64,000 nt of DNA, from the IMG/VR virus record IMGVR_UViG_3300032285_004073, positions 112,808-176,807 of that record. One strand, given 5' to 3'. A program made the position numbers and the translations under genes. Below are positions 59,965 to 62,460 of this stretch, one piece after another. Position 1 is the stretch's first letter. Every line of letters begins with the position of its first letter. The notes beneath the pieces were generated by a model. The model was given only the letters and a program-made list of their open reading frames with translations, was not told the origin of the DNA and searched no databases. This DNA comes from a virus.

Positions 59965-59972
59965 GTAATTTG

Positions 59973-60914
59973 GTGAATTTTAGAGAATTCTTTACAGAAA
60001 GATATATTTCCAGTGATGGGGTAGCAGACAGGTATTATAAATTACCTTCATCTAAGCTACCTCATTACATTTTAAAAGATGAATTGACTCAATATAAATT
60101 TTCTAATGATAAAGAAAATTCTATTGGAGTCTTAAAACCGTATCGTAGAGCTGGAAACGTACATGCGGCTTGTACTTTTGAACCTAATAAATTAGATTTA
60201 AGAGTATTTCTTTTCCATTTAGCCAAGTATAGACATACAGATGAAAAACCTAAAAACGCTTTTCATCAAAGACTTTGGAAAGATTTCTATGAATCTGTTG
60301 TAGACGATACAGTCCGCATTGTTAATGAACAATTAAAGTTCAATCCAGATGCTGTTTTATATTATGTACAATCTAAAAGTCCTTTTAATGAAGCAGTAAG
60401 AAGTAAAATCAATACACCTTCTCATAAGGTAAGCAAGAAAACCTTTGGTGATTTGTATAAGATATATAAGTCTAATAAGTTTATTCTTAACTCATTAGTT
60501 AAGTCCAATATTAAAGATGATAAATATCCCAATCGTAGTATTATAGCTAAAAATGCTTTAGAAAAATTATTAGATATAGTAGGCAAGGATGGAAACATTC
60601 AACAAGAACCTTTGTCTTTAGAAAAGGTTGCAGAGTATATAATCGATTTAAAGGTAATAGATAAAAATAAAATACCAGCTGGAGATGCAGGGTTTGCAAC
60701 TAATAAAGCCTGGGTTCAAGAACGTCTAGTACCTAATGGGTTTTTTAATTTGCCCGATGCTAGTGGAAAAACTATTATAGTTATAGACGATAATATCAAT
60801 TCAGAAAGTACCTATATGGAAATTAATAGTAAAATAAATCAAAGGGATAAATATATTAAAATTATTTGGGTAGTAGGTATTATGCCTGAAGAAGTTATAA
60901 AAAATATAAAATAG
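59973..60914 (+). CDS. Phosphoribosyltransferase-fold protein with capsid-targeting-like N-terminus
   Basis: KTIIVIDDNINSEST resembles the PRPP-binding loop; MNFREFFTE; TAAGTA 5 nt upstream. Confidence 0.6.
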   Translation: MNFREFFTERYISSDGVADRYYKLPSSKLPHYILKDELTQYKFSNDKENSIGVLKPYRRAGNVHAACTFEPNKLDLRVFLFHLAKYRHTDEKPKNAFHQRLWKDFYESVVDDTVRIVNEQLKFNPDAVLYYVQSKSPFNEAVRSKINTPSHKVSKKTFGDLYKIYKSNKFILNSLVKSNIKDDKYPNRSIIAKNALEKLLDIVGKDGNIQQEPLSLEKVAEYIIDLKVIDKNKIPAGDAGFATNKAWVQERLVPNGFFNLPDASGKTIIVIDDNINSESTYMEINSKINQRDKYIKIIWVVGIMPEEVIKNIK

Positions 60915-60915
60915 T

Positions 60916-61515
60916 ATGCAATTTAAAGAATTCTTTACAGAAGAAAAAAATGTAACACCAGAAAAGAGGTATCACAATATGGTTATTCTTTACGGAATGC
61001 CGGCATCTGGTAAGTCTTCAGTCCTTAGACACGGATTAATTAATCTTCCTAATATTAAAGTGTTAACATCTGATCATTGGTTAGAAATGATAGCCAAAAA
61101 GGAAAATTTAAATTTAAAAGACCCAGCAGTTGTTAATGCTTTACATAAAAGAGTATCTCCAAAATTTGACAAATACCGAGAAGACGTTCTCCATACCAAT
61201 AATAAAGCTAACATCGTTATAGAAAATATTGGTAAAAATTATCATAAGCTTTTAAAATTAATAACAAAAGCCCAATCAGAAGGTTTTAGAGTTATATTAG
61301 TTTGGATCAAAGTGGAAAAAGAAACCTCAGTGAAGGCTAATGTTGCAAGAGATAGATTTGTCAATCCAGAAGAAATAGAAATTTCTTATGAAAATACACG
61401 TAAACATTTTGAAGCATTAGTTGATGATGTAGACGAAGCATGGATAATAGATAATGATACACATCCAAATTTTAATGATTTTAGAAGTTCTAAATTTGTA
61501 AAAAGAATAAAATGA
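60916..61515 (+). CDS. P-loop kinase (AAA_33/zeta-toxin-like) with capsid-targeting-like N-terminus
   Basis: GMPASGKS, SD, IVIE, G..V.LV...V....S...N..R.R; MQFKEFFTEE. Confidence 0.75.
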   Translation: MQFKEFFTEEKNVTPEKRYHNMVILYGMPASGKSSVLRHGLINLPNIKVLTSDHWLEMIAKKENLNLKDPAVVNALHKRVSPKFDKYREDVLHTNNKANIVIENIGKNYHKLLKLITKAQSEGFRVILVWIKVEKETSVKANVARDRFVNPEEIEISYENTRKHFEALVDDVDEAWIIDNDTHPNFNDFRSSKFVKRIK

Positions 61516-61709: not shown

Positions 61710-61849
61710 CATTGGAAGAAGAAAGAGACTACTGGAAAGAGTTAGTTAAAGAATTAGCTGACAGAATGGATCAGGAAATTATAAAAGAATATAAATTAAA
61801 AATAGAAAATAATAGTTGCAATTCTGAACAATTAGAGTTATTATTTTAA
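61706..61849 (+). CDS. Small hypothetical protein, 47 aa (not in the ORF track)
   Basis: MTLEEERDYWKELVKELADRMDQEIIKEY...; ATGA overlap. Confidence 0.45.
   Translation: MTLEEERDYWKELVKELADRMDQEIIKEYKLKIENNSCNSEQLELLF
61816..61844 (+). promoter_or_regulatory. Sigma70 promoter for the tRNA/ncRNA transcript
   Basis: TTGCAA-N17-TATTAT, ending 38 nt before the tRNA. Confidence 0.6.
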
Positions 61850-61882
61850 ACATAAGAATTGATCTTTGATAGTACATTTTAA

Positions 61883-61955
61883 CGCAGGATGGACAAACGG
61901 TTAAGTCGTTGCGCTCATAACGCAAAGATTCCGGGTTCGATTCCCGGTCCTGCCA
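61883..61955 (+). tRNA. tRNA-Met(CAT), initiator-like, CCA not encoded
   Basis: Full cloverleaf; CAT at 61916-18; unpaired C1:C72, A11:U24; anticodon stem TTGCG/CGCAA; T loop TTCGATT. Confidence 0.9.
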
Positions 61956-61961
61956 AATATT

Positions 61962-62410
61962 GCCAGTGTATCTTTATATACCAAGTATTGTTTAAGTGGC
62001 TGCTTAAACAATACAAGCCCTCAGCCAAAGGGGCTGGCTTATAAAATTTAACCGCTCTCTAGTTGTAGGTATAATCCTAGAGAGGAGTAAAGCTGAGTTG
62101 TCCGTTGGTGATTAGTAAGCTTTACTTTCGTTGGGGGAGCCAAAGACCTATGGTAAGCTTCGATCCCAGTGTTTGATAAATACAGACTAGACGGCGCGCT
62201 GGCTCCATGCCGGCACCCGTTGAGAAAGAAACAAAATCCGGAACAAAAGTCTTTCATACCACTAATTTCTTTAGTAATGCTACCAAACGCATGTCTCAAG
62301 TCGTGGGAGTACGGATACCGAAGCCGTTGGAACGCAGAGAGATAAAGAAAAAGTAAGAAGACTCGTTGCCTTGACGATACCAGCGCGATGGTGAGAGGAA
62401 CGTATAAAAG
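61962..62410 (+). ncRNA. Large structured RNA of unassigned family, downstream of the tRNA
   Basis: GC-richer intergenic stretch with many perfect helices, non-nested complementarities and a 6-bp loop-loop match; bounded by a promoter and a terminator. Confidence 0.7.
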
Positions 62411-62413
62411 AAA

Positions 62414-62459
62414 AATAGGAGCTAAAGCTTTAGTCAAGCAGAGGCTCCTATTTTTTTTT
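62414..62459 (+). terminator. Rho-independent terminator ending the tRNA/ncRNA unit
   Basis: AATAGGAGC (62414-22) / GCTCCTATT (62444-52) followed by a T run. Confidence 0.8.
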
Positions 62460-62460
62460 C

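Follow-up and report, generated by a model that had tools for sequence, protein, structure and literature searches.

The final 64 kb of IMG/VR virus record IMGVR_UViG_3300032285_004073 (64,000 nucleotides, hereafter the window) carry, on the plus strand at 61816-62459, what reads from its sequence as a single promoter-to-terminator unit: a tRNA-Met, an 80-nt four-way module, a core RNA of ~210 nt, a twister-type ribozyme, a small tail and a terminator. The record is linear, 176.8 kb long and estimated to be 82% complete; its source is an uncultured T4-like phage, with a baseplate gp6 ~25% identical to gp6 of T4-like cyanophages. We consider it fairly probable that this one transcription unit makes several separate RNAs, that the twister trims the core and that the core pairs with itself and acts in trans. 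A preliminary description of the region had noted a structured non-coding unit with a tRNA between a promoter and a terminator, and this stands. Besides the tRNA-Met and the conserved promoter and terminator, 61956-62460 holds no credible open reading frame (ORF), its GC content is ~45% against ~30% in the flanks, and it folds better than 100 of 100 shuffles (minimum free energy z = -3.76). The single RNA of ~450 nt that was also proposed is not upheld: relatives have the modules independently of one another, and there is no long-range helix to connect them.

The searches covered Rfam 15, 50,697 GenBank phage records, 185,579 prokaryote species genomes, IMG/VR and metagenomes. Homologs were recovered by exact-word and composite pattern scans, namely L004 and L005 from IMG/VR, L009 and L019 from metagenomes and, once the twister had been recognised, L022-L055. 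Chance matches from the composite pattern and an 18-mer metagenome scan, mostly in coding DNA, were left out on inspection (L006-L008, L010-L018, L020 and L021). A strict core pattern matched 20 loci in IMG/VR and none in the prokaryote species genomes; all core relatives, 18 distinct sequences, come from uncultured viral contigs. BLAST against the GenBank phage records returned tRNA similarity only for the unit of the window and no homolog for that of L026. Rfam, applied to the window, the region and 12 related loci at the gathering score and at E <= 10, gave only tRNA, tmRNA and sub-threshold twister matches, and full-text literature searches found no paper describing the core RNA. The earlier statement that no family could be assigned holds for most of the region, including the core, which appears to be an uncatalogued RNA without known family; it fails for the 3' ~85 nt, where the sub-threshold twister match lies.

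The core occupies 62055-62262. An alignment of fourteen, later eighteen, distinct sequences over ~235 nt was folded with RNAalifold, which gave helices H1-H4; H5 was then added, and covariance model R1 was built from these. This model finds exactly one core copy per locus in 24 loci and, in L039, a reduced variant. Five helices and two pseudoknots are backed by covariation, the pseudoknots being other than those first drawn. The helices are H1 (62055-62/62077-84), H2 (62086-94/62118-26), H3 (62133-40/62157-67), H4 (62187-94/62217-24) and H5 (62225-29/62250-54); a further hairpin, H4b (62198-203/62209-14), has an invariant loop UCCAU and a stem extension that covaries. In the model-based alignment of the 18 distinct sequences 95.0% of cells are paired, compared to 83.6% in shuffles, and sliding the partners by 1-3 columns lowers the pairing to 42-55%. 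Changes on both sides are seen in 30 of the 56 pairs, against 16.3 +/- 2.1 in shuffles (a level reached by 0 of 500), controls that overstate the significance because the core sequences are related.

The pairs of both pseudoknots were absent from the model used for alignment. PK1 (62100-62187) joins the H2 loop (62100-05, GUCCGU) to the H3/H4 junction (62182-87, ACAGAC); 96.3% of cells are paired, three of its five pairs have changed on both sides, and variants read GUCUGU/ACAGAC, GCUCGU/ACGAGC and GCUUGU/ACAAGC. PK2 (62065-62151) joins the H1 loop (62065-70, GUAGGU) to the H3 loop (62146-51, ACCUAU). Of its cells 92.8% are paired; one U-A pair has become C-G, a change of both partners, in L045 and L055, and several switches between G-U and G-C also occur. 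In the reduced variant L039 the H3 helix is missing and the H1 loop is short, a joint loss that fits PK2.

Of the six helices drawn in the preliminary description, H1 (CTCTCTAG/CTAGAGAG) and H2 (AGTAAAGCT/AGCTTTACT) are confirmed by compensatory changes in 5 of 8 and 8 of 10 pairs, respectively. One, GGAGCCA/TGGCTCC (62136-42/62200-06), goes unsupported: both strands are invariant, and the pairing clashes with the covarying inner helix of H3 and with hairpin H4b. The remaining three are rejected. TTGAGA/TCTCAA (62220-25/62294-99) takes up the twister L4 loop, the partner of which is GAGAG. The long-range CGCGCTGG/CCAGCGCG (62195-202/62380-87) is not kept in L019 or L022; a local hairpin ACCN..NGGU covaries instead, and L037 retains this hairpin despite having no core at all. 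The supposed pseudoknot AAAGAC/GTCTTT (62142-47/62249-54) reaches no more than 67%/40% pairing, and its GTCTTT strand is part of H5, which covaries; pseudoknots had been rightly expected, but they lie elsewhere.

Two observations concern the 3' strand of H3 (62157-62167 and its counterparts in relatives). It reads GCUU(C/U)GAUCC, a T-loop-like U-N-N-G-A motif, and in some relatives it contains UUUGAUCCUG, a 10-nt match to the 5' end of 16S rRNA that is perhaps due to chance.

The 3' ~85 nt (62266-62350) form a divergent twister-type element in P1 layout, as alignment to RF03160 and covariation show; it is predicted to cut the transcript in two. Its elements are P1 (62266-73/62343-50), a predicted cut between U62275 and A62276, P2 (62278-80/62334-36), P4 (62290-93/62302-05), the L4 loop (UCUCAAGU, 62294-301), a hairpin at the P5 position (62306-30), the conserved G62337 and two pseudoknots, in which L4 pairs with the 3' strand of L1 (T1, 62295-97/62339-41) and with L2 (T2, 62282-83/62300-01). 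The twister self-cleaving ribozyme was reportedly introduced by Roth et al. in 2014. The class is marked by a U-A cut site, L4-L1 and L4-L2 pseudoknots and a conserved G at the base of P2, the proposed general base (PMC6154101). With twister type P1 (RF03160) the element shares the order P1, UAA cut site, P2, P4 with an 8-nt L4, A-rich strand, P2, G-A plus T1 strand and P1; L4 pairs with L1 and L2 in the same manner, and both the guanine at the foot of P2 and the adenine that follows the cut are present.

In an alignment of 22 sequences P1 measures 4-9 bp and covaries through several unrelated sequences, and the 4-bp P4, also covarying, is present in 22 of 22; G62337 and the AA after the cut are invariant. 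The cut-site UAA (A62276-A62277 after the cut) is invariant as well, partly fixed by the search pattern, and L055, which was found via the core, has CAA. The two pseudoknots were followed in an IMG/VR scan that left the tested positions free and returned 60 distinct viral sequences. The middle pair of T1 is U-A in 20, A-U in 21, C-G in 12, G-C in 4 and U-G in 2 of these, with one exception; the T2 pair is A-U in 58 and G-C in 2, with no mismatch. Where the window departs from the RF03160 consensus (L4 UCUCAAGU rather than UCCCAAGC, L1 GAGAG rather than GAGGG, L2 ACC rather than GCC), the changed bases pair mutually and are compensated within T1 and T2: L4 CUC with L1 GAG against CCC/GGG, and L2 AC with L4 GU against GC/GC.

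Scanning 181 nt of the window with RF03160 gave an end-to-end alignment at 62271-62345, but one of only 17 bits, where the gathering score is 67.2. Relatives, likewise aligned end to end, score 25-45 bits (L004 35.8, L019 34.1, L009 27.3); a search of the whole genome with this model gave no match at E <= 10. We speak of a twister-type variant and not of a curated member because the score stays below 67.2 bits, which is a threshold of the model and not a property of the RNA. Two things account for the low score: the pseudoknot bases have covaried, so that a covariance model takes them for mismatches at conserved positions, and there is a 25-nt insert at the rare P5 position. Typical twisters differ in this position, where the present group has a 21-27-nt hairpin, and in P2, here of three pairs; a hairpin at the P5 position is found in about 1% of twisters (PMC6154101).

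Twister-pattern matches of an L4 UCCCAAGU/GGG subtype were also seen in IMG/VR records with giant-virus metagenome-assembled genome labels (GVMAG-M/-S-3300012954; L058, L062, L069, L084, L085, L089, L095 and L097). Seven of these loci are from records named GVMAG-S-3300012954-83, and the P4 pairing check failed in 5 of the 8.

How the parts are combined differs from locus to locus. Between the tRNA and the core of the window lies module B' (61962-62038), a four-way junction of ~80 nt closed by GCCAGU/GCUGGC, with two hairpin loops, UGGCUG and CAGCCA, that are mutually complementary. L037 has promoter, leader, B', twister, tail and terminator as in the window but neither tRNA nor core; its B' loops are identical and two of its arms show compensatory changes (GUAU/AUAC to GUG/CAC and CCCU/AGGG to CUCU/AGAG). 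L055, conversely, has promoter, leader and tRNA-Met as in the window, lacks B', and has the core directly abutting the tRNA and followed by a twister. The core abuts twister P1 in 13 distinct sequences; in L009, however, a 103-nt tRNA is inserted between the two, and in L004/L005 they are ~6 kb apart, with some 14 small ORFs in between. Other modules, or the leader alone, precede the twister in L023, L032, L033 and L044, and L024 has the unit at the end of an operon that also contains tmRNA and several tRNAs. This free combination indicates that the region is a chain of independent folded modules, of which twister and terminator are the usual 3' end. Most likely the twister trims the tail of the core.

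Several of the related loci show further RNA features. At least four more closed modules of 80-130 nt stand between the tRNAs and the core or twister: A (GACCG..CGGUC), B (GAUUACUG..CAGUAAUC), C (GACUAG..CUAGUC) and E, at L004 8300-8420 (-), L009 490-690 (-), L019 815-1150 (-), L023, L024, L032 and L033. Two other tail types, one of them CCCUGUG..GCAGGGAC, follow the twister in relatives. Modules A, B, B', C and E match no Rfam family, and neither do the core and the tails. The 103-nt tRNA-like gene of L009 (145-247, minus strand) scores 47.8 bits with the Rfam tRNA model and is not called by ARAGORN; it has an enlarged anticodon or variable region. In L004 (1991-8293, minus strand) and in L005/L030, which share one 218-kb contig, the core on one side and twister and terminator on the other bracket the ~6 kb of ~14 small same-strand ORFs in a cassette-like manner. 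Phage tmRNA genes (68-115 bits) share strand and RNA island with the core/twister unit; they lie downstream of it in L019 (2347-2804, minus strand) and upstream in L024 (6818-7268, minus strand) and L033 (5230-5662, plus strand); the window has none.

Self-pairing of the core is suggested by the loop of H5. This A-rich loop of 20 nt contains the perfect palindrome UCCGGA (62237-62242), a candidate kissing site, within the pattern ACAAA-[palindrome]-AYAAA. A perfect palindrome of 6-10 nt is present in seven of eight distinct H5 loops, whereas shuffled loops have 0.75 on average and 4 at most (2000 trials). Five versions occupy the same place (UCCGGA, UCGGCCGA, UUCUAGAA, UACUAGUA and CUCUAGAG), and three of the four palindrome pairs have changed on both sides. 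L009 and L004, otherwise almost identical, differ exactly here (UCGGCCGA against UCCGGA), which suggests switches of pairing specificity. Since a palindrome without spacer is unable to fold on itself, loop-loop pairing of two copies is the simplest reading. The HIV-1 dimerisation initiation site is likewise a 6-nt self-complementary, A-flanked sequence in a hairpin loop, which varies by lineage, stays palindromic and makes a loop-loop homodimer. With the H5 loop (18-20 nt) it has no sequence or biological relation, and the comparison is a mechanistic analogy only. More tentatively, and with rather less confidence than we give to the unit as a whole, the core may represent a new class of self-assembling phage RNA that forms homodimers or larger RNA-only assemblies via the kissing loop, with the loop sequence setting which copies pair, and that is excised by the tRNA on one side and by the twister on the other. 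If so, it would be akin in kind to GOLLD and ROOL but smaller, of a size that lends itself to structural and genetic work.

Taken together, the following course of events can be proposed. A sigma-70-type promoter would drive leader, tRNA-Met, B', core, twister, tail and terminator as one transcript, from which host tRNA-processing enzymes would release the tRNA. RNA-processing activities of the host would also free the 5' side of the core; where core and tRNA adjoin, as in L055, this would be tRNA 3'-end processing. The twister is expected to fold co-transcriptionally and to cut between U62275 and A62276; this would detach ribozyme, tail and terminator, and would leave an upstream RNA with a defined 3' end, a 2',3'-cyclic phosphate, about 13 nt past H5. 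The core itself would be a compact body of five helices locked by the two loop pseudoknots. Its palindromic H5 loop would pair with the same loop of a second copy, so that the working form is probably a homodimer or higher oligomer. Such a complex would most likely act in trans during infection, serving as scaffold or decoy for some factor, of host or phage, involved in RNA metabolism or translation, a role we infer by analogy with GOLLD and ROOL (PMC12286853). The core itself might bind or act on a component of host RNA processing or translation.

Circularisation or repair of the twister ends by a phage ligase was considered and rejected, as the record, 82% complete, showed no RtcB, Rnl1 or Rnl2 (the control for Rnl1 gave no signal).

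Several other explanations have to be weighed against this reading. That the whole of 61956-62459 is a single large ornate RNA of roughly 450-500 nt, with long-range helices and pseudoknots and belonging to a divergent GOLLD/ROOL-like or new class, would agree with the placement of all parts in one promoter-to-terminator unit and with the constant order of upstream modules, core, twister, tail and terminator in L019, L022 and L052. GOLLD, too, can follow a Met-tRNA and can have tRNAs in its linker (PMC12286853). We regard this as unlikely, however: neither helix proposed to join the core to the downstream modules is conserved, modules stand alone or in other combinations in L037, L055, L004, L009 and L023, an internal twister would cut such an RNA, and neither GOLLD nor ROOL gave a match at E <= 10. 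Little probability is given either to a core that acts in cis, be it as a riboswitch-like leader or as the twister's allosteric partner, sensing a ligand or factor and controlling cleavage, termination or downstream genes. The compact pseudoknotted fold is typical of aptamers, the core abuts twister P1 in the 13 sequences mentioned, and in L004/L005 it stands directly before the ~14 small ORFs that end in twister and terminator. In the window and most relatives, though, no ORF lies between core and terminator; the same twister occurs behind other modules or none (L023, L032, L037, L044), a tRNA (L009) or 6 kb (L004) can separate it from the core, and the palindromic loop has no obvious role in ligand sensing. 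It is about equally improbable that the twister-like element is an inactive relic or structural look-alike, in which case the core would owe its 3' end to the terminator or to host RNases. Its scores of 17-45 bits all fall under the threshold of 67.2 and P2 has only three pairs in the window; yet no class-defining element is missing, pseudoknots that covary through all four Watson-Crick pair types would not persist in a relic, and the changed pseudoknot positions and the P5 insert explain the low score.

Least likely is that the inverted repeats and palindromes act as DNA: a -10 box (TTAACC-16-TATAAT, 62048-62075) would lie within an operator formed by H1, and a dimeric protein would bind at the H5 palindrome. 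It is true that 62048-62075 is the best promoter-like site of the region (10 of 12 matches) and that palindromes are classic protein sites. On the other hand, TATAAT is replaced in relatives by AATAAT, AATTAT or CCATAG while the flanking stem covaries, the palindrome remains one while its sequence changes, as expected of pairing and not of an unvarying protein site, and the H1 loop covaries with the distant H3 loop. The promoter-like site, which lies inside H1 and its loop, is probably coincidental because TATAAT is not kept, even if an internal transcription start at 62048-62075 may exist in this phage. Our own reading, a unit of separate RNAs with a self-pairing core, meets difficulties as well. 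PK1 has one C-A mismatch in the window, and the fourth pair of P2 is a U-C mismatch there; these add to the low twister score and to the relatedness of the core sequences noted above. The palindrome would also suit reading by a dimeric DNA-binding protein, and in L004/L005 the core precedes a gene block, a position in keeping with a role as leader at that locus. Finally, no protein neighbour of the core is common to the relatives and this window, which leaves no pointer to a partner or function.

With respect to known RNAs, the preliminary description had considered a divergent GOLLD or ROOL. The genomic context is indeed of the same kind, beside a tRNA, but neither model supports the assignment. 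GOLLD (RF02032), including the conserved 3' region of its model, gave nothing at E <= 10, whether in the 901-nt region or over all 176.8 kb of the record; the same holds for ROOL (RF03087), for which the control of the whole-record search was without any match, so that the search of the region carries the weight. Like the core, GOLLD and ROOL are phage-encoded, lie beside tRNA genes, are pseudoknotted and have no known function. They differ in length (core ~210 nt, ROOL roughly 580 nt, GOLLD often over 800 nt) and in their helices and conserved sequences, and the core has a ribozyme after it. Cryo-EM (cryo-electron microscopy) structures of GOLLD and ROOL show self-association through kissing loops, and GOLLD env-38 follows a Met-tRNA (PMC12286853); oligomerisation of the core would by comparison be read from one palindromic loop. 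The tRNA between core and twister in L009 calls to mind the tRNAs found within the linker of GOLLD. RNase P types A and B (RF00010, RF00011) have no match at E <= 10 in the region or the whole record either. RNase P had come up through the P4-like look of GAGCCAAAGAC and GGAACAAAAGUCUUU and was rejected, as the pairing AAAGAC/GUCUUU, likened to the P4 helix that conserved regions CR-I and CR-V form in RNase P, is not kept in relatives. A tmRNA (RF00023), with its tRNA-like ends and tag reading frame, was likewise dismissed: ARAGORN and Rfam find none in the window, and in relatives tmRNA is encoded by a gene of its own at another place in the RNA island.

Phage T4 offers a parallel in its stable RNAs C and D (species 1 and 2), small RNAs without known function that are co-transcribed with tRNAs in the tRNA gene cluster and processed from a precursor. 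No ribozyme is known to be involved in T4, and the likeness to the unit of the window is one of description. Theta ribozymes, which are HDV-like, adjoin tRNAs of gut phages (PMC10879173). They share with the present case a small self-cleaving ribozyme in a phage RNA-gene unit with a tRNA, where cleavage would define an RNA end; they differ in being HDV-like and not twister, and the RNA trimmed here would be mostly non-tRNA structured RNA.

The outer parts of the unit are conserved among relatives as well, as regards promoter geometry, leader and terminator. The sigma-70-type promoter TTGCAA-17-TATTAT (61816-61844) was located by a consensus scan with 9 of 12 matches. Its hexamer positions and 17-nt spacing are kept ahead of the homologous units in L037, L053 and L055, where the spacers diverge and the variants read TTGCAA/TTGCCA-17-TATTAT/TATATT/TAATAT. 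In the same three loci a 5' leader (61851-61882, ..AAGAAUUGAUCUUUGAUAGUACAUUUUAA) is nearly identical between promoter and first module, and transcription presumably starts at this leader. The tRNA-Met with anticodon CAU (61883-61955) was called by ARAGORN and scores 61.3 bits with the Rfam tRNA model. It is initiator-like, with a C1-C72 mismatch, and CCA is not encoded. Whereas nine of the ten tRNA genes of the record are at 15-21 kb, this one is solitary at the opposite end; a tRNA-Met also heads the unit in L009, L023 and L055. Downstream of the twister, tail module D1 (62359-62405, GACUCGUUG .. CGAU-ACCA-loop-UGGU-GAG .. AACGU) is conserved in L019, L022, L037, L039 and L052, and its central hairpin covaries (ACCA/UGGU, ACCG/CGGU, ACUGA/UCAGU). 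The intrinsic terminator (62416-62459) consists of a hairpin UAGGAGC .. GGCUCCUA (62416-22/62443-50) and a run of nine U. It is conserved with compensatory changes, for instance in L039 (AUGAGGGA/UCCCUCAU), and the U run follows the hairpin in 5 of 5 sequences. Small ORFs inside the RNA region (49 and 58 aa on the plus strand, 129 aa on the minus strand) are judged spurious, as conservation of the RNA itself is the sole reason why they cluster with relatives.

Just upstream of the promoter, window 60916-61515 encodes a zeta-toxin/AAA_33-type P-loop kinase (Pfam E = 9e-10), and 59970-60914 encodes a 314-aa protein without Pfam match. No link of these two to the RNA was found, and they are not conserved beside the unit in relatives. 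IMG/VR searches with the flanking proteins (the 199-aa kinase and a 134-aa downstream protein) gave no related loci. Neighbours shared among other core loci are an HNH endonuclease and proteins with weak, sub-threshold Pfam matches to NT5C and DUF932.

RNA islands with tRNAs, tmRNA, GOLLD or ROOL are widespread in phages, and the role of their non-tRNA members is an open question. At ~210 nt, defined by covariation and with two tertiary pairings and a likely self-pairing loop, the core would be tractable for probing, cryo-EM and mutation. The trimming of a non-coding RNA by a ribozyme would follow the logic of engineered guide RNA cassettes flanked by tRNA and ribozyme. A sizeable twister subfamily escapes the Rfam model because its pseudoknot bases have co-varied, which amounts to a blind spot in annotation. 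Finally, the free shuffling of modules between phages suggests that these viruses possess a toolkit of independent small RNAs, and not one machine.

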